Source of the DNA: a virus
Length of the DNA stretch: 64,000 nt
IMG/VR virus record: IMGVR_UViG_3300031885_000003
Span: 18,854 to 82,853 of that record
Direction: 5' to 3' (one strand)
Shown here piece by piece: positions 16,414 through 34,523 of this stretch. A program made the position numbers and the translations under genes. A model generated the notes under the pieces. The model made no database searches and was not told the origin of the DNA. It saw only the letters and a program-made list of their open reading frames with translations. The stretch's first letter is position 1. Each line of letters opens with the position of its first letter.

Positions 16414-16443
16414 TTGACAAGGGGCTTAAGGGCATGAGACAAT
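16414..16443 (+). promoter_or_regulatory. Early promoter
   Basis: TTGACA-18nt-GACAAT with TG at the extended -10 position, upstream of the small-gene array. Confidence 0.6.
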
Positions 16444-16494
16444 AGGTGTATCAAGTTGAGGTAAGGCAACGCCCGCGAGGGCAAGGAGGACGGA

Positions 16495-16872
16495 ATGAAA
16501 ATCACGCGAATTACAAACAGTCGGTTTGTGGTGCTGTCCGGCAACAAAACATATCAAGTGAACCACTATAAATCGGTCGGTCAAATGCGGTGGACGTGCA
16601 CCTGTCCCGCGCGGGGCGAGTGCAAACATTTGCGCACGGTGCGCGGTTGCGGGGGTCTTGGGGTAGGCGATAGCATCGAACTCGATGCCGTTCGCGGCAC
16701 GTCGTTTCTCGAACATGCCACGCCCCGCCCGGCGCGTGCAGTAAACGAGGACCCGGATTGCGAGGATCAGAATGAGGACTACGAGGACCAGCACATGATC
16801 GACGATGTTGGGCCGGAAATTGAGGCTGCTCGGCGCGGTCGTGGGGCATATCGCAAATTTTTAGGGTACTGA
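16495..16872 (+). CDS. SWIM zinc-finger early protein with acidic tail
   Basis: WTCTCP...CKH motif; AGGAGG RBS. Confidence 0.75.
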   Translation: MKITRITNSRFVVLSGNKTYQVNHYKSVGQMRWTCTCPARGECKHLRTVRGCGGLGVGDSIELDAVRGTSFLEHATPRPARAVNEDPDCEDQNEDYEDQHMIDDVGPEIEAARRGRGAYRKFLGY

Positions 16873-16902
16873 ACAACCGCCCGAGAGGGCAGGAGGACGG
16901 AA

Positions 16903-17172
16903 ATGATTACAAAACAGCAGGAAAAATTTCAGTGCGCAGTCCGGGAACGGCGCGCGAAACACCATCTGACGATCCACCTACAGCGCGATGCGCAGGCGAC
17001 GACAGCCTGTGGGCTGATCGATGCGAAAAACGTGATCAATGTTGATCTTCTGACCGGGCAGTTTACCCGTCCCGGCGTGCCCCTGAACGCACCGAATGAA
17101 TTCCTGTGTGTGCGCTGCCGAACGGCGCTCGGGGCTCTCTACCGGGCGAACTTAGCACGAATAGGCGAATAG
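16903..17172 (+). CDS. Small early protein (H...TACG...CxxC)
   Basis: AGGAGG RBS after hairpin. Confidence 0.7.
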   Translation: MITKQQEKFQCAVRERRAKHHLTIHLQRDAQATTACGLIDAKNVINVDLLTGQFTRPGVPLNAPNEFLCVRCRTALGALYRANLARIGE

Positions 17173-17261
17173 CCCCATTCCCGTCACGCGCACGCTACCC
17201 CAGGCGGGGCGACCGCGGGCGGGGTAAGAGTAAGAGACTAGGGAAACGAAAGGAGCGAGAA

Positions 17262-17531
17262 ATGCTAGTCGTCCTGATACACCCCGATGACGTTGACAAA
17301 TTGGACGAATTTTGTTTGCCCGATATGTACCGTTGGTGGCAGGGACATGCTATCCAACGCACTATCGGCGACGAGACCTGGTTTGAGGTTGGGAAACCCG
17401 GATGTAGACACCTAGCATTATACGGAGGTGTCAAACGACTGGCAAGTTTTGGTATACATGCACGGGTAGCACGACGCACATTGACGAGGGAACAACGCCA
17501 GCAGCGCATGTGGCGCGCCTATGGCGGCTAA
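17262..17531 (+). CDS. Small early protein
   Basis: AAGGAG RBS, MLVVLIHPDD start. Confidence 0.7.
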   Translation: MLVVLIHPDDVDKLDEFCLPDMYRWWQGHAIQRTIGDETWFEVGKPGCRHLALYGGVKRLASFGIHARVARRTLTREQRQQRMWRAYGG

Positions 17532-17547
17532 CGCCCGGGAGGGCAAG

Positions 17548-17707
17548 GGAGGGAGATTATGTTCGGAATATACAAGGATGGGAAAAAATCAAAACTATGG
17601 TTTTGCACGGCTCCTTTTGGGGCTCGGAAATTCGTTACTCGAAAGAAAGCGGCCGCCTTGGCGCGTCAAGTTGGCGGCAAAGTAGAAAAGATCAAATAAT
17701 CTCATCT
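17548..17707 (+). repeat. Direct repeat copy 1 (copy 2 at 63841-64000, cut by window end)
   Basis: 159/160 identical; G17580 vs A63873. Confidence 0.95.
17559..17699 (+). CDS. 46-aa basic early protein MFGIYKDGKKSKLWFCTAPFGARKF...
   Basis: RBS; duplicated at 63852-63992 (G8R). Confidence 0.75.
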   Translation: MFGIYKDGKKSKLWFCTAPFGARKFVTRKKAAALARQVGGKVEKIK

Positions 17708-17785
17708 CCGCCCCGCGCACGTTGCCCCAGGTGGGGCGACCGCGAGCGGGGTAAGGTAAGGGACCATGGAAACGAAAGGAGCGAT

Positions 17786-18064
17786 ATGGAAACGCGGAAA
17801 TGCCCAAACGTATTATGCCCCGGCACAATGTACCACTCTGACGACATGGAAAACCCGTTTGCCGGGACCGATGATCACACCCCATTTTGGCAGTGCGAGT
17901 TATGCGGGGATTGTCAACCGGAATACACCGCGGCACAGAAACGCCTAATCGAAGAACGGAGGCTAAACTCCCGCTGGGAAAATGCGACTGAGCATGAAAT
18001 GGCGACAACCCCGGAAACCGAGGAATACTCGGACGAACGGTACGACCAGGAGAATCAGGACTAA
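17786..18064 (+). CDS. Zn-ribbon early protein with acidic tail
   Basis: CPNVLC...CELC; AAGGAG RBS. Confidence 0.7.
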   Translation: METRKCPNVLCPGTMYHSDDMENPFAGTDDHTPFWQCELCGDCQPEYTAAQKRLIEERRLNSRWENATEHEMATTPETEEYSDERYDQENQD

Positions 18065-18167
18065 TTCCGCCCCGCACGCTGCCCCAGGCGGGGGATCGAC
18101 GTGGACGCTAACAGCCTATGAGGGCGAGGAGAACGGCATGGAAGAAGGAGCACAGCGATATTACCGG

Positions 18168-18244
18168 TGGGGTGCTCGTTTTTAGGGGGTCAATTGCTAC
18201 TATAGTCTTGCTATCAACGGGGTTAAGGGTGCTCGATTCACAGG
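18168..18244. repeat. 77-bp perfect inverted repeat, copy 1 (copy 2 at 34414-34490)
   Basis: Base-by-base reverse-complement identity. Confidence 0.95.
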
Positions 18245-18344
18245 ATTATGTGGAACGGGAAAACGCATAGGGCGACCGGCGGCGGGATAGGGATAGAGCG
18301 CCACGGGAAACAACGCGCCGGAGAGCGCAAAGGGAGACGTGAAC

Positions 18345-18479
18345 ATGATTAAGCATTGCACACAATGCGGGGAAAAACACGAAGAATTAGAACCCTGTCC
18401 AGAACCAATTCTTAAGAAATGGTTCCCCGGTGTGAAAGGAATCGGGCCGGATGGGAAGCCGTTAAAAGGTATTTGGTAA
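18345..18479 (+). CDS. 44-aa Cys-containing early protein
   Basis: GGGAG RBS after GCGC hairpin; CTQC motif. Confidence 0.55.
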   Translation: MIKHCTQCGEKHEELEPCPEPILKKWFPGVKGIGPDGKPLKGIW

Positions 18480-18720
18480 CAACGCGCCACGGCGCAGAAA
18501 GCCTGAATATGAACCACGCGGCGATAGAAGCGGCTCGGGACCGGGCCCACCACGCGCAATTGCGACACCTGGTCGCCGCCGGCGACATTGCCGATTACCC
18601 GAAATGGTAGAAACGGCTCAAGCGGTTGTTATGCGGGCCAGATGTGGTAGACGACGAAAACGGGAGTCTGCATGCGCGAGTGCGTGCAGCTCTAAAACTG
18701 GTGGATGAAAGGATCGGAGT

Positions 18721-18915
18721 ATGGTGAACACGAAGAAAAAGCAGCTGATGGGCCGGAACTTCTACTTGACGCAGGAGGAGGCGAAGTTCCTCAGCGAGCT
18801 TGGCCGGGAACCCGGCGCGATCAACGGCAACATGTCCGCGGGATTGCGGAAAGCGGTGGAGTACGTCAAAGCCCACATGAAACAGATCCCGCTCGACAAG
18901 GAGGAAGGACCATGA
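18721..18915 (+). CDS. Ribbon-helix-helix (CopG/Arc-like) regulator
   Basis: RNFYLTQEE...LSEL...NMSAGLRKAVE pattern. Confidence 0.65.
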   Translation: MVNTKKKQLMGRNFYLTQEEAKFLSELGREPGAINGNMSAGLRKAVEYVKAHMKQIPLDKEEGP

Positions 18916-19133
18916 GAAACCGAGAAGCAAATTTAGAATGGTTGAACCGGCGCATTGATCATCTCTCTGCGGAGATGTCACGTGCCGTGAAGAATTATGT
19001 CGAAGCGGTCCAATCTCGTGACAAAGAGGGCATCGCAACAAGCGCATGCGAGCATGCCCAGGCGACTGGCCGGTACACCGAGGCCACGCTCATCCGTAGT
19101 TATATCGCCACCGACGCCGTAATTTGTCCGTAG
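18912..19133 (+). CDS. Hypothetical helical protein
   Basis: ATGA coupling to the previous gene. Confidence 0.6.
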   Translation: MRNREANLEWLNRRIDHLSAEMSRAVKNYVEAVQSRDKEGIATSACEHAQATGRYTEATLIRSYIATDAVICP

Positions 19134-19137
19134 CATT

Positions 19138-19175
19138 CGCCCCCGGTTGCAGTCTGGCCGGGGGCGTGCTGTTTT
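19138..19175. terminator. Terminator between the convergent early array and integrase
   Basis: CGCCCCCGG...CCGGGGGCG stem followed by TGCTGTTTT. Confidence 0.65.
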
Positions 19176-20221
19176 CAGGCGTAGGGACGATCTATGTCCG
19201 CGTCCCTGGGCGACAGGTGAGCGTAGATCATCGTGGTCTTGCTATCGGCATGGCCAAGCCATTGAGACACCTTGAACAGGCTGACGCCAGCACTCACCAG
19301 TTGAGACGCGAACGTATGCCGGAGCGTCTTGGGCGTGCACCACGGGACGGCAGCAGCCACGGCGACAGCCTCAAAAGACTTCCTGGGGTCAAAGCGGTAG
19401 CGATCCCGCCCAGGGGCCGCACTTGGGGCGATGATGAAGCCCTGGGCCTGCCTGAACTCGCCCAGGATGGCTTGTAGTTGTTCAGGGAATGGGATTGTGC
19501 GTGGCCGCTTGCCTTTGGGGTCCCACCCGGTAGGCTCATCATCATCTGAGTCGATGCCTACCATGTGGATCAGCTTTTGCTCCCAATCGAACCACTCCCA
19601 CCGGGCCTGTACGATCTCCGCTTTGCGCAACCCGGCATGGATCCCCAAGGCAAAGTACAAAAGCATATCTTGACTATGGGCCTTGGCCGCGTCGAGCACC
19701 GCGGCTACCTGGGCCTTGTCCAACCATTTGACGTGCCGGGCAGGCTCCTCTATGAGCCTTGCGCCGCTGAACGCGTTGGGCCCGGGGATCCAGTGCTGCT
19801 CGACAGCGATACCAAAGAGCGCCTTGAGGCTCTTGATGCAGACGTTGGTGGTCTTGGCCGCTCTGCCGGCCGATTTGAACCTTGCCTTGACCACATCCAG
19901 GTGAGCGATCCCGACGTCGGCCAGCGCGGCGCCGTTACACGCGGCCTTGAGTTTACCCAACGCCCAGAGGTACGAATCCCGCGTGCTCTGGCGATGGTGC
20001 AGGTCAGCCCACGCCCGGTATCGGTCCTCGAGATCCGCCAGGGTGCAGACAGCCGGCGGCGGGGCTTCGACAGGCAGACCCGCGACCAGGAGCGCCTCGA
20101 TCCTTGCCCGCCTTGCCTCCGCTTTAGCGGCATCTTTGGTGTGCAAGCTCGTCCAGACCGTCTTGGCTCCGTCCTGATACCGTAGATACCACGTCTTGCC
20201 CCGCAGATAGAGCGTGCTCAT
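19175..20221 (-). CDS. int: Tyrosine integrase
   Basis: GLRKAEI (R), PKGK, KTLRHTFAS (K for first H of HxxR), LGH, TTMIYAH; N-terminal arm-binding domain. Confidence 0.95.
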   Translation of the reverse strand: MSTLYLRGKTWYLRYQDGAKTVWTSLHTKDAAKAEARRARIEALLVAGLPVEAPPPAVCTLADLEDRYRAWADLHHRQSTRDSYLWALGKLKAACNGAALADVGIAHLDVVKARFKSAGRAAKTTNVCIKSLKALFGIAVEQHWIPGPNAFSGARLIEEPARHVKWLDKAQVAAVLDAAKAHSQDMLLYFALGIHAGLRKAEIVQARWEWFDWEQKLIHMVGIDSDDDEPTGWDPKGKRPRTIPFPEQLQAILGEFRQAQGFIIAPSAAPGRDRYRFDPRKSFEAVAVAAAVPWCTPKTLRHTFASQLVSAGVSLFKVSQWLGHADSKTTMIYAHLSPRDADIDRPYA

Positions 20222-20225
20222 GGCT

Positions 20226-20567
20226 TCACTCCACCCGCGATATCTTATGGCCGGGATCGTGCATACAAAACCTTACGGGCTGCGGTCCCAACACAGGAAA
20301 CTCGAACTGTGGCCGCCACTGGAACTCGTCCCAGACGCGCTTGGGTAGATACGCAAACCCCTGGAGCAGGTCATAGACATGCACCGGCACGCCCATAAAC
20401 GGGGTGTGCAATTCCAACACTTCACACGGCGGCGATTCTTCGGGCGATGAACACTCGGCCCGCAAAGCATCATGCGCCCCTATCCCCATCACCAGCACCA
20501 TCGGCTCCAACTGCCCCTCCATCTCGTTTTCAACCCGCTGCATCATCTCGACAATCTGGTCAATCAT
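20226..20567 (-). CDS. Hypothetical protein between attP and int
   Basis: GGAGGG RBS before MIDQIVEMMQ. Confidence 0.55.
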   Translation of the reverse strand: MIDQIVEMMQRVENEMEGQLEPMVLVMGIGAHDALRAECSSPEESPPCEVLELHTPFMGVPVHVYDLLQGFAYLPKRVWDEFQWRPQFEFPVLGPQPVRFCMHDPGHKISRVE

Positions 20568-20584
20568 GGTGTCCCTCCCTCCGT

Positions 20585-20878
20585 GAGTAGTCACTTTGAG
20601 TAGTCACCTCTCAAAATGCTCTGTTAATGCGACCATGAGGAGTGTATCGTAAATGGTTGGGATTGTCAAGGGTTACGATTGGTGGAGATGAACGGGATCG
20701 AACCGTCGCCCTCATGACTGCCAGTTATATAATACAGAAATGCACAAGTCCAGCAACATCATGTAGTTACATGGTATCACTGGACTTGCGCGGGAACGCT
20801 GCTCTTCGCAGAACACCGCCAAACACCGCCAAAATGGTATCGGGGTAGTCACTTTTGCCGGCTCGGGGTAGTCACTTT
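20585..20878. other. attP: core 20680-20725 = 3' half of tRNA-Ala(GGC) (minus strand), flanked by four GTAGTCAC arm-type repeats
   Basis: Minus strand ACTGGCAGTCATGAGGGCGACGGTTCGATCCCGTTCATCTCCACCA (GGC anticodon loop, T-loop, U70, CCA); arm repeats at 20585, 20598, 20840, 20863. Confidence 0.85.
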
Positions 20879-20880
20879 GT

Positions 20881-21339
20881 TCACAATCCCAGCAGCCCAT
20901 TTAGGATGGCCTTCATCGTTGGCCCGTTCGACTCAAGACACTCATCAGAAGCGGCTTTCTTGTCGTCAAAGTACCAGTCGTAGTTCAAGCCACCTTCCAA
21001 GGACTGAATTACCATACCGTAACCCCCATGGCGAAGGAGTTCTTCACCGAAGTAGTGGTAGTAATAACCGATTGCCAACTCGTATTTCCCATCCACGAGA
21101 TTCTCCACACAAAACGTTTCTCCGGGTTGTAAAGGCTCAGGTAAGATGTTCATACCCTTTGTGGGAACTGGATCAACTGGACCGATGCGGGTAACCGACA
21201 AAGAGTAGATATCATGGTCATAATTGTTGTGCAACGTCAGGCTGTTCGTTCCGTTTGGGTTGGAGTTGGGTGAATCTGGACAGCCCGCCAGGACCGCCAG
21301 AACGAACAGCACTACCGCGTACCGCAATCTCTTGTTCAT
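20881..21339 (-). CDS. Lysogeny-region lipoprotein (possible superinfection exclusion)
   Basis: MNKRLRYAVVLFVLAVLAGCP lipobox; directly downstream of repressor. Confidence 0.7.
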   Translation of the reverse strand: MNKRLRYAVVLFVLAVLAGCPDSPNSNPNGTNSLTLHNNYDHDIYSLSVTRIGPVDPVPTKGMNILPEPLQPGETFCVENLVDGKYELAIGYYYHYFGEELLRHGGYGMVIQSLEGGLNYDWYFDDKKAASDECLESNGPTMKAILNGLLGL

Positions 21340-21350
21340 GGCTTTCTCCT

Positions 21351-21674
21351 TTATTTGAGTTGTTTCCCACAATGGATACAGAACTTCGCCGTTTTTCCCC
21401 GGACACTGAGAACAGTCAACTCGTAGCAAATGGCACACGTCACTTCCCGCAGACCCGATTCTGGCACTTGTGGCTTACCCTCGATCATCGCTTTCAGCTT
21501 CGCAAGGTTTTTTCTCGTCATATCCTTAGTCCCACCACGTTCCCAAGCCCCGTAAGTGTTCATGCTTAACCCAAGGAAATTACTCACATCCATCTGCGAC
21601 AACCCCTGCTCATCACGCCACTGTTTTGCCCGTTCCCTTAATACCCCATCATCTGCCCCGGCCCCTTTACTCAT
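21351..21674 (-). CDS. CI-like XRE repressor with C-terminal CxxC...CxxC zinc ribbon
   Basis: LSQMDVSNFLGLSMNTYGAWERG HTH; divergent from cro. Confidence 0.8.
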   Translation of the reverse strand: MSKGAGADDGVLRERAKQWRDEQGLSQMDVSNFLGLSMNTYGAWERGGTKDMTRKNLAKLKAMIEGKPQVPESGLREVTCAICYELTVLSVRGKTAKFCIHCGKQLK

Positions 21675-21675
21675 T

Positions 21676-21823
21676 TGTCAATCCTCCATATATATCGCGC
21701 AGACTGCTTTTGCGCCATCCGTATAGGATAGTACACCGATAATGCACGTCCTGTCAAGGGGTTGCAGAATTATACACAGACCATATATTTTTCTTGACAA
21801 AACAAGCCACCTGTCTATACACT
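21676..21823. promoter_or_regulatory. Divergent immunity promoters
   Basis: Leftward TTGACA(21757-21752)-18-TACTAT; rightward TTGACA(21794)-18-TACACT. Confidence 0.65.
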
Positions 21824-21848
21824 GGCGGTGCACCAAAAGGAGAGGCCA

Positions 21849-22067
21849 ATGCAGATGGAACGACAGACGACGCCACAACGGGCCGTGTTGGAACGAATGA
21901 TTAACCACAAGGGCTGGACATACACAGAACTTGCGAAACGGGCGGGGTTACATCAGAGCCTCATCGGCAAACTGCTGAGCGGGGAACGGGCGATCACCTT
22001 TCGGACAGCCCGGAAACTGGCCAAAGTATTTAACATGAGTTGGCGTCATTTCTTTTGCGAGGAATAG
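21849..22067 (+). CDS. Cro-like HTH
   Basis: WTYTELAKRAGLHQSLIGKLLSGER. Confidence 0.8.
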   Translation: MQMERQTTPQRAVLERMINHKGWTYTELAKRAGLHQSLIGKLLSGERAITFRTARKLAKVFNMSWRHFFCEE

Positions 22068-22069
22068 CA

Positions 22070-22339
22070 ATGCCTGAAACCTACCTTGGCCCCGCCCAGG
22101 CGGCAAAGTACATGAACATCGGCGTCACCCTGTTTTACCGGTTGCGGAAGGGCGACGCCGCATTCCCCGCGGCTATCCCGCTCGGCCGGTGCCGCCGTTA
22201 TAGCGTCTACGACCTCGACGCCTACATGCAGTCGAAGAAACCAAAACCCGTCACACCCGATCCCGAACTGGAAAAAGAAGCTGCGGACATCATCCGCAGC
22301 CATAGGAAACCACAAGAGGAGAACCACGCTCATGCCTAA
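22070..22339 (+). CDS. Excisionase/AlpA-like winged-helix protein
   Basis: YLGPAQAAKYMNIGVTLFYRL...FPAAIPLGR..RY. Confidence 0.75.
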   Translation: MPETYLGPAQAAKYMNIGVTLFYRLRKGDAAFPAAIPLGRCRRYSVYDLDAYMQSKKPKPVTPDPELEKEAADIIRSHRKPQEENHAHA

Positions 22340-22583
22340 GAAACGCAAACCGCGAGCGCAGGCGCCGACAGCAGCACCAAAGCCAACCGCTGCCGTGCGC
22401 GTCCCGAAAGCCGTCCTCGACGGCCTGATGGCTCTGCAGTCGACCCCAACGAACACCCGCAACATCAACCAGGCGATCCAGATGCTCCGGCGTCTCGGAC
22501 ATCCGCAGGCGCAGCTATGGGTGTCACAGCACCCGAGCGAATACTACGAGGGGGTCGAGGTCGGCTTCGAGGCGGACGAATGA
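22332..22583 (+). CDS. Hypothetical protein (DUF5049-like)
   Basis: AVLDGL...TN...W...HPSEYYEGVEVGF pattern recalled for DUF5049. Confidence 0.5.
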   Translation: MPKKRKPRAQAPTAAPKPTAAVRVPKAVLDGLMALQSTPTNTRNINQAIQMLRRLGHPQAQLWVSQHPSEYYEGVEVGFEADE

Positions 22584-23086
22584 GCCGTAAGACGTGCACA
22601 CAATGCGGGGAGGAGAAACACCACGTCTCGTTTTACGCGGGGAGCAGCGTATGCCGGGCCTGTCAGAGCGAGCCGAGGCCGAAGATCAACGATGGCCGGG
22701 CACCCACTTTGGCAGAAGCGGAAGAGAAGGAGCGGCCGGCGCCGCGTCCCATGCCCGTGCCCGTTTCTGCGCCAGTGAACCCGCCGGAAAAACTGCCAGC
22801 GTTAGAACTGGCATCGTCGCTGGAATACCGGTTTTGCAAAGACGAAGAGCCAGAGCCGGAAACCGAAAAGGGTCCAGAGACCGACATAGACGGGGGACGG
22901 CTGATCGTGAAAGCCGAGACGTCGGTGGAACTGCTTGCGGCCGTCCTGATCGCCGTGTTGGACGTCTGCCCGGACGCCCGGTGCAAGTCTCTATATGGAG
23001 AGTTAGTAATCACGGCGGGGAGACAAAGGGAGAGTAACCAACGAAAGGAGAACACGACTGATGAACTGGAAGATTTTAGGGGTTGA
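22580..23086 (+). CDS. Zn-finger hypothetical protein
   Basis: CTQC...CRAC; ATGA coupling. Confidence 0.6.
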   Translation: MSRKTCTQCGEEKHHVSFYAGSSVCRACQSEPRPKINDGRAPTLAEAEEKERPAPRPMPVPVSAPVNPPEKLPALELASSLEYRFCKDEEPEPETEKGPETDIDGGRLIVKAETSVELLAAVLIAVLDVCPDARCKSLYGELVITAGRQRESNQRKENTTDELEDFRG

Positions 23087-23483
23087 CGACAAGTTGCCCG
23101 AGTTGGATGGGCCGATTCAATTGCAGTTGGAACATGTCAACGGCACGCTCAGGGAAGTCGCTCTGGCCTGCAACTACGACGTGGTTCTGAAAATCATCCC
23201 GGGGCCATACGGCGGCCTCCAATTGCTGGTGCCACCGGATCCGAAACCAATCTACGAGATGCGTGGCGAGCTGTGCGGTTTCCGGGCCAGGCCCATAGAG
23301 TTCGACGACGAAGCCAAGGCCCGCGAAAAGTACCTCTGGCACGTCTCACAAGTCGGCCCCTCGCCACATAAGATCCAACTGGTCAAAGTGACTCGGGTGG
23401 GCGACGAGAAGGAGCGTGAAGAAGTGCTAGCAGAGGATATTGTGAGCGTAGCGGAGGCACACGCCGACCCCGACAACTTCTAA
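23061..23483 (+). CDS. Hypothetical protein
   Basis: AAGGAG RBS; 140 aa. Confidence 0.65.
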   Translation: MNWKILGVDDKLPELDGPIQLQLEHVNGTLREVALACNYDVVLKIIPGPYGGLQLLVPPDPKPIYEMRGELCGFRARPIEFDDEAKAREKYLWHVSQVGPSPHKIQLVKVTRVGDEKEREEVLAEDIVSVAEAHADPDNF

Positions 23484-23495
23484 CTTCTCTGATCT

Positions 23496-23984
23496 CGGTG
23501 CGCCGCCAGGCAGGTTCGCAGCCCGCCCTCACGCCCCCTCTGATCCCCATCAGAGACACACGGCGGCGCACCGCTTGAAAGTTGAAGATTTTAGGTGTGC
23601 TGTGGCCGAGGAATGCGTGACGGGCGCGAGAAATCGCGTTGGTAAGCGACGACGGCTTACGGTCGGCTCGACGATGGGGTAAGGAACAGACCCTTAGAGC
23701 AGCAAGTAGGTCAGCCGGGCGCGGGTGATTTTACCCGTAGTAACAGTACAGGCCGAGATAACGCCAGACAGCCACAGCACACCGATTTTCCAGCGGCGGT
23801 AAATACTCGCGAGCGCCGCTGGTTCTCCAGTGCGCGGCGTTTCAATGGTCTCGCAACCCCCAAGGGCGCCGCGCACTGGTCTCCACAACGGGAAGGGGGT
23901 GGTTTATGAAGTAAAGACTAACTTCTCCCATTTAACGATGCAAGCAGCACGGGGGCGGGTCAGACAGACGCCGGCCCGCCCCCG
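23496..23984 (+). ncRNA. Cluster of six consecutive structured RNA elements
   Basis: Closing stems 23496/23573 (12 bp), 23594/23783 (13 bp, multibranch), 23790/23822, 23827/23879 (13 bp), ~23890/23929, 23950/23984; no credible ORF. Confidence 0.6.
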
Positions 23985-24566
23985 CAAAGAAAGGGGACTA
24001 TGGGATCAAAAGCGATTTTCGCCGGCACAATCAACCCGCCACGCAACGGTGTGTTCAAGACACTATAGGCCGTGCCCGATAGTTGGGAGGCCGAGTGCAT
24101 GACGCTCCAATCGTCGTTGCGCGACGCGCTGGCGGCGGAGAAGGACGCGATCATCGCCAGACTGAGGAACGACCTGGAGAAGGCACGGAGGTTGGAACAA
24201 CGTTTATGAATAAAAAAGATCCTGATGAGACGATGAGGCAAATTCGGTCAGAGCAACGCGAACGCCTCCGGGACCGGTTCGCAATGGCGGCGCTGACAGG
24301 GTTGCCTACAACCGAACAGACGCCAGAGCATCTTGCAAAAACAGCCTACAGAATAGCCGACGCCATGCTGGCCGAGCGGGAGAAGACACCATGTTCCTCT
24401 CCTTCCTAAACCTATTCCGCCGCCCGCGTTGCGCCGACTGCCAGCGCAAAATTAAGCGGGGGCAAGTAAGCATCAGGGTCGCAAATCTTGACGATTTTCT
24501 CGGGTATAGGTGGGTAAAACTCTGTGCGTCCTGCTACTGGGAAGCGACCAAAGGATTCACTGACTG

Positions 24567-24797
24567 ATGAAACGCCAACTGTCGCTTGTGAAGATCAAGA
24601 CGATGGGCGATGCCCTCGCCTACTGCCGGATGCAACGGGGAATCAGTCAGGAGCGACTATTTGAACGTTCAGGCGTACCGCAATCTACGATCAGCAGATT
24701 CGAGCGAGACTTCGACGTGCGGGTGTCAACGGTATTGAAACTTTGCAAAGCCATGGGTGTGCCGTTGAGCGAACTCGCGGCGATGGCAAGGGTGTAG
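24567..24797 (+). CDS. XRE-family HTH protein
   Basis: ISQERLFERSGVPQSTISRFER. Confidence 0.8.
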   Translation: MKRQLSLVKIKTMGDALAYCRMQRGISQERLFERSGVPQSTISRFERDFDVRVSTVLKLCKAMGVPLSELAAMARV

Positions 24798-24799
24798 TG

Positions 24800-25681
24800 A
24801 TGAAAGAAACATTTCAAAATATTAAGTTGAGCAAACTCCGACTCGCCGCCGCAAACCAAGCCGACGTCATCCTTGAAGAATATGCCCTGGGCGGATGGAT
24901 CCTGACGCTGCGGCAACTCTACTACCAGTTCGTCGCGCGCGGCCTACTGGAGAATACCGAGCGCAATTACAAGTGGCTCGGATCCGTCGTCAATGACGGC
25001 AGACTCGCGGGCCTTCTCGACTGGGACCACATAACCGACCGAACTCGCACCTGTCAAGTCGTCAGCACATGGGACTCTCCACAGGACATTATCCAAGCCT
25101 CAATCGACTGCTACCGTATTGACCTCTGGAAAAACCAGCTATATCGGATTGAAGTGTGGGTAGAAAAAGACGCTTTGATTGACGTCGTTGGCCGTGCCGC
25201 AAACTTGGCTCAACTCCCGTACTTTTCCTGTCGCGGATACTGTAGCCAGAGCGCCATGTATGGGGCTGCAAAACGCCTTGAGAAATACATAGAAGCCGAT
25301 CAAATGCCCTACATTCTCTACTTCGGCGACCACGATCCAAGTGGAATCGACATGGCGCGAGACATCCAGGTCCGCCTCAATCTGTTCTTGGACAATCCAC
25401 GGATGCACTTTGACCGTCTCGCGCTGACGATGGAGCAAATCGACCAGTACTCACCGCCGCCAAACCCGGCAAAACTCACCGACTCCCGGTGTCGCGGATA
25501 TATGGATGAATATGGCGAGGAGAGTTGGGAGCTTGATGCGCTTGAGCCTAACGTGATTGTCGAACTCATAACGAACAAGATGGCCGGCCTCAAAGACCAT
25601 ACGGCATGGAAGAAAATGACGGCCGTGCAAAAACGGGATAAAGACACGCTCAAAAACCTGTTGGGGAAAATCAGCGACTAA
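24800..25681 (+). CDS. Spo11/Topo VI-A-like protein (winged helix + TOPRIM)
   Basis: TLRQLYY (cf. Spo11 TxRDxYY catalytic Tyr), VWVEKDAL, GDHDPSG, WELDAL. Confidence 0.75.
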   Translation: MKETFQNIKLSKLRLAAANQADVILEEYALGGWILTLRQLYYQFVARGLLENTERNYKWLGSVVNDGRLAGLLDWDHITDRTRTCQVVSTWDSPQDIIQASIDCYRIDLWKNQLYRIEVWVEKDALIDVVGRAANLAQLPYFSCRGYCSQSAMYGAAKRLEKYIEADQMPYILYFGDHDPSGIDMARDIQVRLNLFLDNPRMHFDRLALTMEQIDQYSPPPNPAKLTDSRCRGYMDEYGEESWELDALEPNVIVELITNKMAGLKDHTAWKKMTAVQKRDKDTLKNLLGKISD

Positions 25682-25985
25682 TGCTCCGTAGCCTATGGGG
25701 TGAGAATTACGAAATGCAAAAAACTGAAGCCCAGGTCGACAAGTGGATGGCCCTCTATGAACCGCGCTATCGGGCGCTCTGCAAACAGGCCAATGCCCTC
25801 GACGACCTCATGTGTGACCGTGCGGTCATACCGCCAGACATCCTGAAAGCGGCTGTCGAGGAACTGGCAGACCTTAAATCCACATGGGAGGGGATTGTCG
25901 GCCCAGTGAACCCGCCCTATGAAATGCTGATCGCCGAGATGCTGTTGGCTGACATCCAAGAAGAGTTTAAGGTCAGGGCGGGGAT

Positions 25986-26942
25986 ATGATTAAATATCGT
26001 TCTACCCCTGTAAAAATCTGGAACGATCTTGCCTTTTGTTCCCTATCTGATGATGCCCAACTTGTCTATTTTTTTGTCCGCACGCATCCCAACATGGCCG
26101 CGTGCGGAGCCATGCGAGCAACATTATCGGGACTCGCACAAGAAAAACACTGGGGTGAAAAGAGATTTACAGCAGCCTTCACGGAGCTTACAAAGGTGGT
26201 TGAGTACCGAGTTGATGAAGTACGCGGTTGTGTGGCCGTGATGGATTTGTTAGAAACGAACAGACCTATAAATGCAAAGTCCATACAGGGTTATATCAAC
26301 TCCTTTGACACGATACCTGATTGTAAGTTGAAACTAGAACTAATGCGACGGCATGCAAAACAATACCCACAGTTAGAAGAAAAGTTAGCTAACTTTTCCC
26401 TAACTTTCTCCGAACTTTTAGAGGGCCAACAAGAACAAGAACAAGAACAAGAACAAGAACCCCCTATTTCCCCCAACGAAAAACTCCAAAAAGTTCTCAC
26501 CGAACACCCAGGCGCAGAAGTCGTTCACGTCAAACTTCGCAGCAAGATTCTCGAAGCACATCCGAATGCCAAACTGCCAGAGCCGACCCGAGAACCCAAA
26601 AAGTATCTCGATGGTTTGATGACGATTGTGAACCTCATTAAGCGGGACCGCTTCACGTCAACAGACCTTGAGGCTCTTTGGTGGGTTTTTGAGTCAGACG
26701 ACGACGAGGCGATCTTCTGGCGACAACAACTATGCGGAGTGCCGGGCCTCAGAAGGGTGTGCAAGAACGGCATGACCAAATTCGCGTCGATTCACGAGCG
26801 ATGGGGTGACGCAGTGGCGGGAAAAGGGATAGACCCTAGCGGCAAACACCAATTTACGTCCCGAGAACTTGCTGGATTCGAGGCCGAGGAACGGTTACAG
26901 GCGGAACGGAAACAGCGGGAGGGTACAAAATGCCAGTCATAG
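25986..26942 (+). CDS. Replication initiator-like protein
   Basis: KYR...KIWND..F..LSDDAQL N-terminus, QEQEQEQE linker; directly upstream of DnaB. Confidence 0.75.
   Translation: MIKYRSTPVKIWNDLAFCSLSDDAQLVYFFVRTHPNMAACGAMRATLSGLAQEKHWGEKRFTAAFTELTKVVEYRVDEVRGCVAVMDLLETNRPINAKSIQGYINSFDTIPDCKLKLELMRRHAKQYPQLEEKLANFSLTFSELLEGQQEQEQEQEQEPPISPNEKLQKVLTEHPGAEVVHVKLRSKILEAHPNAKLPEPTREPKKYLDGLMTIVNLIKRDRFTSTDLEALWWVFESDDDEAIFWRQQLCGVPGLRRVCKNGMTKFASIHERWGDAVAGKGIDPSGKHQFTSRELAGFEAEERLQAERKQREGTKCQS
26371..26460. other. Probable replication origin inside the initiator gene
   Basis: Perfect 20-bp palindrome GAAAAGTTAGCTAACTTTTC (26379-26398), further CTAACTTT repeats, (CAAGAA)n tract. Confidence 0.6.
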
Positions 26943-28366
26943 CAGACGGCATACCCCCCCACAATCTCGAAGCTGAACAGGCCGTCATTGGGGCGATCCT
27001 ACTGGACAACGACGCGGTATCGGACGTGGTAAACATCATCGGTCGGTCGAATGAAATGTTCTATTCCGCCACACACCAAGCCATTTATTCGGCCATGCTT
27101 GCCATCATCGACAAAGGGCGGCCGGTAGACGGCATCACCCTTGCCGAACAACTGCGGGAAGACGGCAAGTACGAGCTGGGCGGCGGCGTCACGTACATCG
27201 GTGAGATTGTCGATGCCGTACCCACTGCGGCCAATGTGGCCTACTATGCGGAAATCGTCCGCCACTGCCATATCCGGCGAGAAGTCCATCGAGTCTGCAC
27301 TCGCCTTGCAGCCGAATCCCTTGAGGCTGATTCCTCATGCGACTCAGATTGGCTCGACAAAGCCCACAGCGGGCTCCTGGCGCTTTTTGAACATCGGGAT
27401 CGGCATTATCCCCTACCCGCGATTGAAATCGTCTCAGGCGCCCTTGCAGAGATTCAGGCGGTGGTTGACGGGAAACCGCGAAACGAAGGATGGACTACAG
27501 GGTATACCAGTTTGGATGCAGTACACGGCGGGTTTGTGCCGAATCTCTACATCTATGCCAGCCGACCGTCGGTAGGCAAGACGACCTTGGCCGCAAACAT
27601 CGCCTGCCACGTTGCGGCAGGGGGCCACCCGACCCTTTTCTTCGCCCTCGAGATGTCGGACGCCCAAATGATGCGGAAGATCCTGATGTTCCGGGCCGGG
27701 GTGAATTGGGGGCAAGTTCGCGCGGGATTTAACGCACGAAGCCAACTGGACAAAGTGCGGTTTATCGCCCCGGGCATCGGCCGCTGGCCTCTGTGGATTG
27801 ATGACACACCAAACCTGACGCCGAACGCCCTCCGGGCGAAAGTGCGAAAACATATCCATCAGCACGGCCCAACACTCGTCATCATCGACTATCTGCAACT
27901 CATGGATATCCCGCAGGCACGAGGCCAGAACCGATATGAAGCTCTAGGCGGTGTTTCGCGCACACTGAAAAACCTGAGCGGCGAACTCGAATGCCCCTTC
28001 ATCGGCATATCACAACTCGGCAGGGACGCGGATGGCGTTGATCCCAAAATATCTCACCTGCGGGAATCGGGCAATTTCGAGCAGGACGCGGATGTGATCA
28101 TCCTTCTGTCCCGCTACCTCAAACCCGAGATAACTGAACTCCACAAAGCAGGTAGATATCTTAACGTCGATTTCGACCGGATCGTGAAGGTTCACATTGC
28201 GAAAAACCGTGAAGGTGAGACGGGAGTAGTGCAGATGATTTTCGATAAGTCGGTACAACAGTTCCGAGAACCCGGACAGCCTGAAATAGAATGCGACGCA
28301 GAAACGGGCGCCTCGATTGCGCCCGATCCACAAGCGAATCCAGAAACAGATGAGATACCATTCTGA
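26930..28366 (+). CDS. dnaB: Replicative DNA helicase
   Basis: PPHNLEAEQAVIGAIL, SRPSVGKTT, IIDYLQL, SQL, LRESGNFEQDAD, KNREG. Confidence 0.95.
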   Translation: MPVIADGIPPHNLEAEQAVIGAILLDNDAVSDVVNIIGRSNEMFYSATHQAIYSAMLAIIDKGRPVDGITLAEQLREDGKYELGGGVTYIGEIVDAVPTAANVAYYAEIVRHCHIRREVHRVCTRLAAESLEADSSCDSDWLDKAHSGLLALFEHRDRHYPLPAIEIVSGALAEIQAVVDGKPRNEGWTTGYTSLDAVHGGFVPNLYIYASRPSVGKTTLAANIACHVAAGGHPTLFFALEMSDAQMMRKILMFRAGVNWGQVRAGFNARSQLDKVRFIAPGIGRWPLWIDDTPNLTPNALRAKVRKHIHQHGPTLVIIDYLQLMDIPQARGQNRYEALGGVSRTLKNLSGELECPFIGISQLGRDADGVDPKISHLRESGNFEQDADVIILLSRYLKPEITELHKAGRYLNVDFDRIVKVHIAKNREGETGVVQMIFDKSVQQFREPGQPEIECDAETGASIAPDPQANPETDEIPF

Positions 28367-28393
28367 ACCGGCGCAAGAGGAGGAGTTGTTCTG

Positions 28394-28849
28394 ATGACGA
28401 GAGGCTATTCGGCGATCGGCCTGTACCAGCCCAAGACGCCCGCAAACATCGGCGGCGTTCTGCGGGCAGCGGACTGTTACGGCGCGGCGCTGGTGGCCGT
28501 GCAGGGGCAGCGGTATAAGCGGATCGGAACGGACACGCTGGCGAGTTACCGCCACATCCCCTTGTTGAACGTGCCGGACCTGCACGAGTGTGTGCCCTAT
28601 GACTGCATCCCCATTGCGATTGAGAGAGCCGATGGTGCAAAACCGATTCAAGATTTCACCCATCCCGAGCGGGCATTCTACGTGTTCGGCCCGGAAGACG
28701 GGAGCGTGCCGAAGGCTGTACAGGAATGGTGCAAGTGCGTGGTCTATATCCCAACGTGGCATTGTATGAACCTAGCGGCAACGGTGAACGTGGTGCTGTT
28801 TGACCGCGCCATGAAGCGCGGGGAATGGTCAAAAGGGGGTGACGCCTGA
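28394..28849 (+). CDS. SpoU/TrmH-family (SPOUT) RNA methyltransferase
   Basis: PANIGGVLRAA, YVFGPEDG, YIP...MNLAA..VVLFD motifs. Confidence 0.88.
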   Translation: MTRGYSAIGLYQPKTPANIGGVLRAADCYGAALVAVQGQRYKRIGTDTLASYRHIPLLNVPDLHECVPYDCIPIAIERADGAKPIQDFTHPERAFYVFGPEDGSVPKAVQEWCKCVVYIPTWHCMNLAATVNVVLFDRAMKRGEWSKGGDA

Positions 28850-29235
28850 TGTCCGCGATCCCCGAACTCAACGCGGTGCAGATCGCGGGTACGCTCGCCA
28901 GGGCGCCCAAAGCGAAGAAATCGAAGCAGGGGTTTGACGTTGCCGAACTAACGTTGGTCAACAAACGCACCAGGACGCGCGGCGACACCGAGACGGTCAC
29001 GCTCACCTACGTCATCGTGGAGTTCTGGGACAGGCCAGCGACGAAGTTGATCAAGCTGGACCTGAAGGCGGGGACGGGGATCATGATCGAGGGACTGTTG
29101 TGGTTGAGGGTTTGGACCAACAAAGTAACTGGAAAAGGCGAAAATCGCCTGATCGTCATGGGAAACACGTTTAGAGTGCTCGACACGCCAGACGCGGTGT
29201 ACGAGCCAGAGGAGCCTGACCAATGCCAACCGTAA
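28849..29235 (+). CDS. ssb: Single-stranded DNA-binding protein (divergent)
   Basis: LNAVQIAGTLARAP...W...G..IEG.L OB-fold pattern. Confidence 0.7.
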   Translation: MSAIPELNAVQIAGTLARAPKAKKSKQGFDVAELTLVNKRTRTRGDTETVTLTYVIVEFWDRPATKLIKLDLKAGTGIMIEGLLWLRVWTNKVTGKGENRLIVMGNTFRVLDTPDAVYEPEEPDQCQP

Positions 29236-29720
29236 TCGTATCGCTACCCCCAGGCGCACCGATAACCTTCTTCGTGCCGGGAAGGCCAGCAACAGCCGGG
29301 AGCAAACATGGATTCGCCCTCAAGAAGGGCGGCCAGTACACCGGCAAAGTCGTTATGGTAAACGACAACAAGCGGTACACGGACTGGCGGGCACTTGTGA
29401 AACACATCGCTTCACAGGCATATCAAGGTCCGCTACTCGATGGGCCGCTGTTTCTCAAGGCCCAATTTACGTTGCAGCGCCCAAAGTCTCATTACTACCA
29501 GACCAAAGCGCGGCTCGGTCAACTCAAAGACGACGCGCCACATTGGGTCACATCGAAGCCGGACTGCTCGAAGATCATCAGGGCGCTGGAAGACTCTCTG
29601 ACTGGCGTGATCTGGACAGATGACTCCCGCGTAGTCCGTCTGGTAACGGAGAAGGTCTACGGAGAGAAGCCGAGAACGGACGTGCAGATTTACGAACTGC
29701 GCAGGCGGGGACTGGCATGA
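29223..29720 (+). CDS. rusA: RusA Holliday junction resolvase
   Basis: KPDCSKIIRALEDSLTGVIWTDDSRV. Confidence 0.88.
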   Translation: MPTVIVSLPPGAPITFFVPGRPATAGSKHGFALKKGGQYTGKVVMVNDNKRYTDWRALVKHIASQAYQGPLLDGPLFLKAQFTLQRPKSHYYQTKARLGQLKDDAPHWVTSKPDCSKIIRALEDSLTGVIWTDDSRVVRLVTEKVYGEKPRTDVQIYELRRRGLA

Positions 29721-29983
29721 GCGACAGCGGTGCGCGCGCGAGGGCATGGGCAACGAGGCGGCGGCTATACGGCGCGGCTGGCCATCGTGGATCGTATTCG
29801 GGTCATGGCGCACTCCGTTGTCGTGATTGTGAACGCATGATCGGTGTAATTGTGCGGCTGTACGCGGAAGGCGTATTGAGCGAAGGACAGGCGGCGAAAG
29901 CAACCGGGCGTGATCGCGTCTGGCTGCGAATAGCGAGGGACGAAATAATAAATGACCACGGCGTGTGCCGCGAGGAGGGATAA
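29717..29983 (+). CDS. Hypothetical HTH-like protein (paralogue of 35219-35491)
   Basis: RAWATRRRLYG...LYAEG.LSEGQAAKATG. Confidence 0.65.
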   Translation: MSDSGARARAWATRRRLYGAAGHRGSYSGHGALRCRDCERMIGVIVRLYAEGVLSEGQAAKATGRDRVWLRIARDEIINDHGVCREEG

Positions 29984-32900: not shown

Positions 32901-33392
32901 GGCTGAATTTTGACCGCCGGTGGCAGAAACGGAAACAGGCGCTCGCGCAGGCGGAAGGAGAGGCACCGTGAAGATCAAGCGGTACTGCACATGTGGCGGA
33001 TACCAGACCGGAACAATCGTGCGGATGCCCCGGTTACAGGCCCAAGCGGATGCAATCTGGGCGGAACATACCGGACCCGGCCATGCCCCGTGTGACGCCA
33101 AGACCGCGACAAATGCGAGGCGTAACCAGGAGCGCCGCGCCGAGAGGGCGGAAGGAGAGGCGACGTGAATCAGGAACGTATAGATAATCTGTTAAGCGGT
33201 ATCCGAAACGTCGCGTTAGCTCTTAGGAAGACAATCGAGAATCCCGAACCAGGCGACTCCGTTAGAAAGTTGAGCGAGGAAGAATGGATCGAACTTTATA
33301 GACTCGTTGGGCTTCTTCAAAAAAACGTGCAACAGATTCAGCAGGAACAGGGGTTGCCATTATTGATGGTCGAAACGGAGAAAGGGACGTGA
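29983..33392 (+). other. Run of small, translationally coupled accessory genes (includes paralogues 31720-31896 and 32364-32528, and a HigA-like HTH at 32525-32971)
   Basis: ATGA/GTGA overlaps and AAGGAG RBSs; ITPEIAAALGRAFGTCAERWLN resembles the HigA/VapI HTH. Confidence 0.65.
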
Positions 33393-33721
33393 TGAGCATG
33401 AATGAACTTGCACACCAGATTCATGAATACGCCAAGGATAAAGGCTGGTACGACACGCACCCGAGCGTCGGTGAAATGTTGGCAAATGTCCACGCCGAAG
33501 TTAGCGAGGCGCTGGAAGAGTGGCGCAACGACCACATGGGCAAGTATTTTGGAGAAGGCCACGATTGTAAGCCGTGCGGTTTTCCCTCAGAGATGGCCGA
33601 CATCATTATCCGCGTGCTGGACATCTGCGCGTCGTTCGACATCGACATCGACGCGGAAGTGTCGGCTAAGATGCAATACAACCAGACGCGCCCTTACCGC
33701 CACGGGGGCAAACTAGCATGA
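33389..33721 (+). CDS. MazG-like nucleotide pyrophosphohydrolase
   Basis: HAEVSEALEE...SEMADIIIRVLD...KMQYN..RPYRHGGK. Confidence 0.85.
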   Translation: MMSMNELAHQIHEYAKDKGWYDTHPSVGEMLANVHAEVSEALEEWRNDHMGKYFGEGHDCKPCGFPSEMADIIIRVLDICASFDIDIDAEVSAKMQYNQTRPYRHGGKLA

Positions 33722-34182
33722 AACCCATCGGCGTAGTCCAATCCGCCCCGGCTGTGCGCGGCCTACTCGACGGCGGGACCGTGCTGTGGGTGCCAGCTAC
33801 AAAAGATCCATCATGTACGCGGATCTTTTGGGTTGAGAATGAAACGACATTCCCCAATGGCAAATACACGGGGTGGGTCAAGGATTGCGGTGCGCCTTTC
33901 TTGATTCCCATTAAACCGCCCGTTCAGTCCGGCGATGTGGTATGGATCAAAGAGACGTGGTGCGAAATACCGTGGGAAGACGGTATGGGCAAACGATCTA
34001 CACGGGTTCTGTATCGGGCGATAGAACCGGAACTATTTGACCGCACTGTCGGCGATAAATGGCGTTCCCCCGTCACCATGCCCCACTGGGCCTCGCGTTT
34101 CGAGCGCATCGTCACGGCTATCGGCATGGAGCGGCGGGACGGCATGTGGCAGTGGCGGATCGAGACGGAGATAACACCATGA
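33718..34182 (+). CDS. PUA/ASCH-like phage protein
   Basis: GDVVWIKETW...WRSPVTMPHWASR. Confidence 0.6.
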   Translation: MKPIGVVQSAPAVRGLLDGGTVLWVPATKDPSCTRIFWVENETTFPNGKYTGWVKDCGAPFLIPIKPPVQSGDVVWIKETWCEIPWEDGMGKRSTRVLYRAIEPELFDRTVGDKWRSPVTMPHWASRFERIVTAIGMERRDGMWQWRIETEITP

Positions 34183-34523
34183 TGCCACCAAGGCATGTAT
34201 GCAAAATGAAGCCGCTCAATGCCTATATCCGTGGATATCGGAATGGCGTTCAGTGGGCGGAAAAAGAGATTGCGGATTACAAATCAGCACTAGATAAGAT
34301 GTTTACAATCGCCCTTGACGCTATCGGAAACAAGAGCGAAACGATTGCCGTTCGGGATGTGCTAGTTAAGGATAATTGGGAATTGCGCAAGCGGGTGGCG
34401 GAATTGGAATCAGCCTGTGAATCGAGCACCCTTAACCCCGTTGATAGCAAGACTATAGTAGCAATTGACCCCCTAAAAACGAGCACCCCATTGGGGATCG
34501 CTGAAAAAAGCGGGCAGGCATGA
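34179..34523 (+). CDS. Coiled-coil hypothetical protein whose tail is encoded by the 77-bp repeat
   Basis: ATGA-coupled; LRKRVAELE then ACESSTLNPVDSKTIVAIDPLKTSTP. Confidence 0.6.
   Translation: MMPPRHVCKMKPLNAYIRGYRNGVQWAEKEIADYKSALDKMFTIALDAIGNKSETIAVRDVLVKDNWELRKRVAELESACESSTLNPVDSKTIVAIDPLKTSTPLGIAEKSGQA
34414..34490. repeat. 77-bp perfect inverted repeat, copy 2
   Basis: Reverse complement of 18168-18244. Confidence 0.95.

Follow-up and report, generated by a model that had tools for sequence, protein, structure and literature searches.

A small-gene array with shared hairpin leaders and exchangeable open reading frames in uncultured sediment phages

Introduction

New genes for host takeover and anti-defence emerge in the accessory regions of phages, and the capture of orphan genes in expressible form is understood for few systems. 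Among the closest described ones are the promoter early stem-loops (PeSLs) of T4-type phages, mobile regulatory cassettes which combine a terminator-like stem-loop with an early promoter and at which sequences with no other relationship have been proposed to undergo homologous exchange (Arbiol et al. 2010, PMC2839356; Comeau et al. 2014, PMC4122927), and the start-associated sequences (SAS) and extended SAS (ESAS) of cluster K mycobacteriophages. SAS have a Shine-Dalgarno (SD) core and a proposed role in translation initiation; for the ESAS inverted repeats, RNA pairing was unsupported according to the authors, who favoured DNA-binding proteins (Pope et al. 2011, PMC3203893). Here we analyse a stretch of 64,000 nucleotides (nt), hereafter the window, which forms the last 64 kb of the 82,853-nt virus record IMGVR_UViG_3300031885_000003. 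The record holds two packaging and structural gene sets, belonging to phages that we call A and B, and between them, at positions 16414-19133 of the window, lies an array of small open reading frames (ORFs) preceded by three types of repeated hairpin leaders (L1, L2 and L3). We consider that this array is probably a hypervariable accessory region of mosaic, uncultured sediment phages, in which reusable translation and stability leaders would double as recombination joints.

The array resembles PeSL regions in that short composite regulatory motifs, with a stem-loop in every unit, recur in hyperplastic regions between small ORFs, most of them orphans, and in that indel and replacement joints between close relatives fall at the motifs. 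Each PeSL unit is a transcription unit, however, whereas here the repeated unit is a translational leader, and the leaders are not PeSLs because there is only one promoter per array. The hosts and phages are also unrelated, those described here being temperate siphovirus-like and podovirus-like sediment phages. In common with SAS, the leaders are SD-containing, one-orientation repeats located 3-7 nt before the starts of non-structural genes of different families, and about half of SAS carry inverted repeats just upstream. The 13-bp SAS consensus, GGGATAGGAGCCC, is nevertheless absent from the leader positions (none on the plus strand with two mismatches or fewer, and two minus-strand matches that are not at gene starts), and the leaders are hence not SAS; furthermore, SAS genes are kept in place whereas those of the array are shuffled, and RNA pairing is supported here. 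The array thus resembles PeSLs and SAS in its working, at the level of the translational leader, while being a member of neither.

RNase III sites separate the early genes of T7, and the boxB stems of lambda (GCCC./.GGGC) and P22 (GCGC./.GCGC), which carry a GNRA-fold loop, resemble L1 and L3. The boxB element of lambda and P22 nut sites has a pentaloop on a 5-bp stem and lies after boxA, once per early operon and with no SD fusion, whereas the leaders have a tetraloop on a 4-bp stem and occur in 3-7 copies per operon, each abutting an SD. The T7 sites and the 5' stem-loop/ribosome-binding-site stabilisers of aprE, ompA, SP82 and hbs (PMC3997798) share with the array a strong host-type promoter, small genes expressed early and hairpins between cistrons, and in the stabilisers a 5' hairpin beside a strong SD protects the mRNA. 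Those are individual sequences, in contrast to the repeated and interchangeable leader family described here.

Results

Leaders and ORFs as separate modules

A metagenome scan with the array gene g5 returned three contigs (L042, L043 and L044), and five arrays were compared: the two in the window, of which the second is a gene-plus-leader unit that reappears at 63826-64000, the end of the contig, and those of the three relatives. L042 belongs to a 72,989-nt record (G001), which corresponds to a complete circle of ~72.7 kb because its ends overlap by 254 nt. The L042 array runs L1-gA, L1-gB, L1-g1, L1-gC and hairpin+L1-g5 in its first part, and degenerate L1-gD, hairpin+L1-gE, L2+L3-g7, L3-gF and gG in its second. 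L043, which begins inside g4, runs g4, L2-g5, L2-g3', L3-x1, L3-x2 and a gG homologue, and L044 runs from a P1-like promoter through L1-h1, L1(triloop)-h2, L1-g4 and L2-g5 to L3-x3.

Over the five arrays, L1 stands before at least 11 different, unrelated small genes, L3 before six and L2 before two. Conversely, g5 has an L2 leader in three arrays (window, L043 and L044) and an L1 leader in L042. Gene order varies as well, with g4 coming after g3, a promoter or h2, and g3 after g2 or g5. Ungapped walks from the ORF ends showed that, in most pairs, gene-specific homology ends within 0-2 nt of the ATG or stop codon, and that the sequence shared beyond this point belongs to the leader. Leader and ORF are separate modules, and the arrays differ by whole ORFs. 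The cassette system proposed in a preliminary description of the window, made from its sequence, is therefore upheld, as leaders recur with different genes and genes with different leaders, and the breakpoints in relatives, when compared with the motifs, fall at leader/ORF borders. What can be exchanged is the ORF by itself, its expression signal being supplied by a separate, reusable RNA leader, in contrast to the promoter-carrying PeSLs.

Logan contigs of four sediment runs (X1-X4, X1 being the source run) were compared with positions 11000-27000. A minor form in X1, at ~10x, joins 18065 to 17189 (the end of g5 to the L2 of g3) via the same 8 nt as L043, indicating that two array variants coexist in one sample. 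In X4, an L1 leader lies immediately upstream of g5 on a 55-kb contig, which matches the arrangement in L042. The X1 and X4 joints have short flanks and such cases call for caution; both are matched by full contigs of an independent collection.

The combination of a promoter, small cassettes that lack one, imperfect hairpins downstream of cassette ORFs and an adjacent tyrosine recombinase could also suggest an integron-like system, in which the recombinase would capture cassettes at hairpins acting as attC sites folded from single-stranded DNA. We regard this as extremely improbable. The integrase scores 50.1 bits against TIGR02249 (cut-off, 265 bits) and 33 against NF011946 (cut-off, 435), homologous arrays stand beside integrases that align over only 42 residues, and a regular-expression search of both strands of 16400-19200, made with no attC covariance model, found no RYYYAAC...GTTRRRY core pairs; integron identity is rejected. 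The integrase is located at the distal end of the array, convergent and behind a terminator, instead of divergent at the promoter-proximal end, and has an attP core of its own, a tRNA-Ala 3' half (20679-20723), and L1 also occurs directly after the promoter, with no preceding cassette.

Architecture and distribution of the leaders

L1 consists of a 4-bp all-G/C stem closed by a GNRA-type tetraloop (GCCC-GNGA-GGGC) and ends 0-2 nt before a strong SD. The 12-nt hairpin (GCCCGNGAGGGC) occurs four times in the window, always on the plus strand (16471, 16879, 17533 and 63827), against 0.11 expected; no shuffle reached four, and the other 18.8 kb of the contig hold no further copy. L3 is built likewise, its stem being GCGC or CGCC, its loop CACG and its SD GGAAAGG. 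L2 is a ~45-nt imperfect hairpin located after the upstream stop codon and followed by a linker and a fixed 17-mer with the SD. The 17-mer, found at 17242 and 17768 with 0 expected, sits in a 78-nt repeat (17181-17258 versus 17708-17784) of 87% identity. These observations agree with the preliminary description, which had reported all three leader types, the GCGC hairpins at 18315 and 18484 folding as it stated; it had given 19 identical bases for the leaders at 16471 and 63827, and we find 20, starting from 16470 and 63826. The L1, L2 and L3 hairpins are followed by no T-run and are thus not terminators, and a T-run is also lacking at the other long post-stop hairpins, including unrelated ones in L042 and L044. 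At gathering threshold, Rfam returned nothing over the whole window; two matches in 16000-19400 are at chance level (E near 1-2).

Minimum-energy folds leave the SD and start codon unpaired. The predicted probability of an unpaired SD is 0.76 for 13 hairpin leaders versus 0.56 for 101 other SD-bearing genes from the same two phage genomes (p=0.003). The general architecture of a GC stem followed by an SD and a start codon is not enriched across the window (8 versus 3.2 in shuffles), and only its clustering in arrays is striking. Hairpins joined to an SD in this way occur only in the arrays and, with other stems, in early small-gene regions of B and G001, and are essentially absent from structural modules. 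Exact L1 copies all lie in arrays and on the coding strand (4/4 in the present record and 5/5 in the complete relative G001). This provides a rule for virome searches, which would look in small-gene regions for GC-clamped tetraloop hairpins that abut an SD and all have one orientation.

A fourth reusable leader (CGCC-GAGAG-GGCG, then GAAGGAGAGGCG and a GTG start) was observed at 33138 and at 70999 and 71197 of G001, where it precedes small early-region genes of B and G001. Two further pairs of repeats, 31708/32349 and 35169/35438, likewise lie at junctions and are of this kind.

Complementarity of the leader stems

L1 and L3 have in common an AAC-rich 5' flank and their overall design, whereas their stems differ (GCCC/GGGC, GCGC/GCGC and CGCC/GGCG) and are all complementary. 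In IMG/VR, the exact L1+SD pattern was found in nine distinct contexts, at least six of them between a stop and a start codon in phages that share almost no proteins with those studied here; the G+C content of one such contig is only 46%. Leaving two stem pairs free (CGSSCGNGAGSSCARGGAGG) in a control scan of IMG/VR yielded 40 distinct contexts. Stems were fully complementary in 10/11 cases in leader context and in 6/29 elsewhere (Fisher p=8.5e-5), the latter matching the 25% chance level. The complementary stems in leader context come from six GCCC lineages and two GCGC lineages, and after collapsing by lineage 8/9 remained complementary (p=1e-4). The change from GCCC/GGGC to GCGC/GCGC is a compensatory double change that leaves loop and SD unchanged.

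Because complementarity is tied to leader context and a compensatory stem exists, the comparison shows that the small hairpin is under selection where the motif acts as a leader. The preliminary description had named a lack of covariation in the stems as grounds for refuting its interpretation; the paired stems in leader context and the compensatory variant speak against such a lack, and selection for pairing supports, in general terms, its suggestion that the leaders act as RNA signals, for which boxB-like protein binding, RNase III processing and standby sites had been put forward as candidate mechanisms. L1 is a candidate for a new RNA motif; it is present in phage contigs that are otherwise unrelated and has first support from covariation. 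The L2 pattern had no match in IMG/VR and the L3 pattern matched G001 only. A search of genome contigs with the L1a pattern gave four matches, all in coding sequence of high-GC genomes, which were dismissed as chance.

These data also bear on whether the leaders have a function at all. They could be leftovers of one intergenic region that was duplicated repeatedly, the arrays being shaped by illegitimate recombination and the survival of intact ORFs. Common descent would explain why the ACGGAA spacer before the ATG is common to L1 copies though it needs no conservation, and neither the missing covariation in L2 nor the non-significant folding z-scores described below would be surprising. Such leftovers, however, would not be expected to show complementarity that follows leader context in independent phage lineages, or a compensatory stem variant. 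Furthermore, the sole L1 with a broken stem is the leader of a dead cassette gene, gE, the motif is limited to small-gene regions and the coding strand, and the predicted SD accessibility is higher for hairpin leaders. We therefore regard functionless leaders as quite unlikely.

Proposed function of the array

If the leaders serve translation and stability, one strong sigma-70-type promoter would drive a polycistronic RNA in which small orphan ORFs are exchangeable modules, each joined to one of a few reusable leader modules. The hairpin would lock up G-rich sequence beside the SD and keep the latter single-stranded regardless of the upstream cassette, thereby acting as an insulator. Leaders of this type may offer a natural set of insulated ribosome-binding-site parts. 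Hairpin and bound ribosome could also shield the 5' end of each cistron after processing, as 5' stem-loops and ribosome binding stabilise mRNAs (reviewed in PMC3997798, refs 95, 109, 179, 180), and the long L2 and other post-stop hairpins might form 3' barriers between cistrons or be processed by RNase III-type enzymes, as happens between the early genes of T7. Since identical leaders of 25-80 nt flank different ORFs in co-occurring phages, the leaders would in addition offer the homology through which ORFs are exchanged.

Several observations weigh against this interpretation. The L1 stem is invariant in this phage group, so that covariation within the group cannot be judged, and the covariation reported above comes only from other phages and from the comparison of L1 with L3. 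RNAalifold analysis of six L2 copies, which are too alike to be informative, detected no compensatory change in the hairpin, one compensatory pair in the downstream linker and several broken pairs. Taken singly, the leaders have folding energies no different from those of shuffles (z -0.05 to -2.5), and the processing sites and 5' ends are predictions from sequence. With regard to exchange, the L1/L2 swap joint of g5 falls between leader and ATG, where the two leaders have no common homology, and no single-strand-annealing recombinase was found among the scanned phage B proteins, which include SSB, a RusA-type resolvase and an endonuclease VII-like protein. Breakpoints in short intergenic spaces would also be expected if only intact ORFs survive, so that recombination mediated by the leaders is a proposal, and the leaders may instead do no more than mark the places at which whole ORFs can be joined.

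The strong promoter, variable orphan genes and conserved small protein near the end of the array recall the layout of anti-CRISPR/aca operons, and the L1 stem resembles that of lambda boxB. Both features would fit hairpins that are operators of a dedicated trans-acting regulator, the whole array forming one post-transcriptional regulon. Candidates for this regulator would be the g10 family (as an Aca2-like RNA/DNA-binding autoregulator), a Mu Com-like zinc-finger activator, a boxB/N-type antiterminator or a small RNA. Neither the stem nor loop positions 1, 3 and 4 (G-N-G/A-A) vary in 14 copies, which is more than stability needs, and several cassette proteins are Cys-rich; yet no helix-turn-helix, ribbon-helix-helix or Com family was detected in the array proteins (N-like proteins were not searched for and are not recognisable with the libraries used). 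The same L1 occurs singly in the IMG/VR phages that share almost no proteins with these, which makes a private regulator unlikely, and the 3-7 copies per operon contrast with one nut site per operon. No antisense copy of the L1 leader is present on the contig, which likewise does not favour a regulator. On balance, we consider this explanation, together with its candidate regulators, unlikely.

In a broader version, L1 would be a widespread phage RNA operator, that is, a GC-clamped GNRA hairpin fused to an SD and read by a trans-acting factor, for example the g10-type family near the array end or a host factor. Such an operator would switch all plug-in accessory genes, possibly anti-defence genes, at translation and would also define the borders of gene capture. 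We think this rather speculative and quite improbable, and retain the interpretation of the leaders as translation and stability elements that double as recombination joints.

Promoters and genes of the array

The features of the array and of its surroundings are listed in Table 1. As the preliminary description had proposed, about nine genes of 33-125 amino acids (aa) follow a sigma-70-type promoter: nine ORFs carry SD sites, g8 among them being doubtful, and the one cassette gene reported as nearly identical in two places is g4, which matches g4' at 140/141 nt, the single difference resulting in Gly8Arg. The P1 homologue in L044 reads TTGACA-18-TACAAT. P1, P2 and the terminator at 19138 score about as well as can be expected of such consensus scans. 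Three other plus-strand promoter matches in the array (each 9/12) lie inside ORFs, none at a leader. The AGTTGAGG box also follows the promoters of L044 and L042, and a variant, AGTTGAAG, is found behind P2. About 150 nt upstream of P1, two GGTAATAGCAA direct repeats (16255-16280), conserved in L044 (255-291), were observed; they are a possible regulator site.

Table 1. Features of the array, of its second copy and of the surrounding phage genes (window positions unless marked as contig).
Feature	Position	Strand	Remarks
Phage A early genes	contig 1-7900	plus	
Phage A portal	8730-10751	minus	
Phage A large terminase	10764-12383	minus	
Phage A small terminase	14582-15085	minus	
Promoter P1	16414-16443	plus	TTGACA-18-GACAAT, TG before -10; 10/12 matches
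AGTTGAGG box	16454-16461	plus	between promoter and first leader
L1 hairpin, leader of g1	16471-16482	plus	GCCC-GCGA-GGGC, abuts AAGGAGG
g1	16495-16872	plus	125 aa; 80% nt homologue in L042 behind another L1
L1 hairpin, leader of g2	16879-16890	plus	loop GAGA
g2	16903-17172	plus	89 aa, orphan
L2, leader of g3	17181-17258	plus	long imperfect hairpin, linker, 17-mer holding SD
g3	17262-17531	plus	89 aa, orphan; after g5, not g2, in L043
L1 hairpin, leader of g4	17533-17544	plus	loop GGGA
g4	17559-17699	plus	46 aa, basic orphan; second copy is g4'
L2, leader of g5	17708-17784	plus	
g5	17786-18064	plus	92 aa, Cys-rich (zinc-ribbon-like)
Truncated L2 hairpin remnant	18065-18107	plus	after g5
Decayed L1 (GCCTATGAGGGC)	18113-18124	plus	stem broken, ahead of dead cassette gE; compare intact gE leader of L042
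Pseudogene of cassette gE	18137-18270	plus	split by 78-nt insert, truncated
77-nt insert	18168-18244	minus	exact reverse complement of 34414-34490; missing from L042 and X4
L3 hairpin, leader of g7	18315-18328	plus	GCGC-CGGAGA-GCGC
g7	18345-18479	plus	44 aa, Cys-rich; 98% nt identical in L042
L3 hairpin	18484-18495	plus	GCGC-CACG-GCGC; same leader before four other genes in relatives
g8	18509-18610	plus	33 aa; doubtful, SD poor/degenerate
g10	18721-18915	plus	64 aa
g11	18912-19133	plus	73 aa; start overlaps g10 stop
Intrinsic terminator	19138-19176	plus	closes array; strong, z -4.5 (19138-19166)
Tyrosine integrase of phage B	19175-20221	minus	convergent with array; context only, outside cassette mechanism
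Phage B replication genes, DnaD/DnaB-type		plus	after the integrase
Phage B terminase	42067-43326	plus	portal follows
Phage B tape measure	54351-56894	plus	
Phage B lysis genes	to ~63424	plus	
Promoter P2	63768-63796	plus	TTGACA-17-TATAAT, 12/12 consensus; behind phage B lysis genes
L1 hairpin, leader of g4'	63827-63838	plus	
g4'	63852-63992	plus	1 mismatch to g4; ends 8 nt before contig end

Searches of Pfam, PHROG and NCBIfam assigned no function to any array or cassette protein (no anti-defence protein library was searched), and the host-takeover or anti-defence roles suggested in the preliminary description are conjectural. The g1 product probably represents a small zinc finger of the SWIM type that has an acidic tail, a lead suggested by a Pfam SWIM match at E=0.038, which is below the cut-off, and by Atlas, which points to SWIM clusters. 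The protein cluster of g4 comprises two member sequences from two contigs, the longest of which is the present record. The g10 family is the sole one found near the end of all three arrays with visible ends, at 35-37% identity; it is the last gene in L042 and L043, and is followed by g11 in the window. Only seven relatives of g10 were detected in 5.8 billion proteins. Assignment of g10 to the ribbon-helix-helix class was not supported, given that PDB yielded no sequence match, AlphaFold2 predicted two helices with a predicted local distance difference test score of 69, and Foldseek returned nothing below E=5.

A dead cassette and its insert

The ORF-free stretch at 18100-18300 holds the remains of gE, which is intact in L042 (10628-10807) and encodes 60 aa there. 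The X4 contig jumps from 18167 to 18246 over the insert. The array copy of the 77-nt inverted repeat is a clean 78-nt insertion in gE, and its other copy forms the 3' end of an ORF at 34059-34523. The unit contains a promoter-like TTAACC-16-TATAGT element and CGAGCACCC repeats near both ends; this element faces downstream at 34.4 kb and is antisense to g5 and g4 in the array. The 77-nt unit may have arrived as a small insert, mobile or templated, or may give rise to antisense RNA.

The two phages and the assembly of the record

The terminases and portals differ between phages A and B, yet the two share four segments of 80-93% identity, including contig 1-417 (93%), contig 608-1061 (84%) and a tail-fibre piece (80%), and G001 has a fibre like that of A together with a terminase and lysis genes like those of B. 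A and B are mosaic relatives drawn from one gene pool, and the earlier portrayal of the array as shared by two unrelated phages was thus overstated. The same applies to its portrayal as early, since in phage B and in G001 the array lies between lysis genes and integrase, a moron-like position. G001 runs from B-like lysis genes and a terminator through a TTGACT-17-TATAAT promoter, the array and another terminator to a different minus-strand integrase. No DNA match was obtained among 50,697 GenBank phages, the terminases are only 30-46% identical to those of known phages, and searches of IMG/VR with the integrase, g1, an endolysin-region protein and the small terminase of A found no close relatives.

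The presence of A and B on one molecule may reflect a path taken during assembly. B would then be a 46,293-bp circle (17548..63840) closed via g4, and A a separate genome with an array that also contains g4, the assembler having walked from A through the shared gene and around B. The second copy of the unit occupies the last 176 nt of the contig. In line with an assembly path, the last 127 nt of the contig exactly repeat 17581-17707, B is in attP form, and the circular G001 is ordered lysis, promoter, array and integrase; L043 also breaks inside g4, and X3 contains phage A and the g2 region, with B nearly absent. The depths in X1, each available as one figure per Logan contig, are less accommodating: g4-g5 stands at 36, corresponding to one continuous 25x path from g3 to the integrase plus the 10x variant and not to the 25+24+10 expected of two genomes, and g1-g3, at 25x, match B (23-24x; integrase, 23x) and not the structural part of A (50x). 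These figures could not decide between a chimera and a Campbell-type cointegrate through the shared cassette, which would give the same contig, and we are evenly divided as to whether an assembly path is the explanation. The 5' part of the array belongs with A, because a contig of X2 bridges 15571-16142 and X3 contains A and g2 with almost no B. In either case the sharing of g4 is real, as independent contigs show this gene in three contexts. A cassette common to co-occurring phages breaks or fuses metagenome assemblies.

A C-rich low-complexity tract lies at 15736-15798, where Logan contigs break and the X1 depth halves from 50x to 25x; the X2 contig spans it. On the minus strand at 20679-20723, a 45-nt tRNA-Ala 3' half with a G3:U70 acceptor is present at 46-188x in all four runs. 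Loose ends at this site run on into the tRNA 5' half, and phage DNA is found on both sides; this element is the attP core of phage B. The motif TGACTACC, expected ~1.3 times per strand over the whole contig, occurs as three direct copies upstream of P1 (15988-16025) and as two inverted copies beside the B attP core (20844-20874), and one copy also begins L044; the copies could represent operators or sites of arm type. A 1737-aa ORF (L029, 7916-13129 in contig coordinates, minus strand) is located distally in the structural module of phage A, at its end. In the early region of G001 (L050-L053), two tandem-repeat tracts, with periods of ~15 and ~18 nt, were observed at 58784-59064 and 61675-61967.

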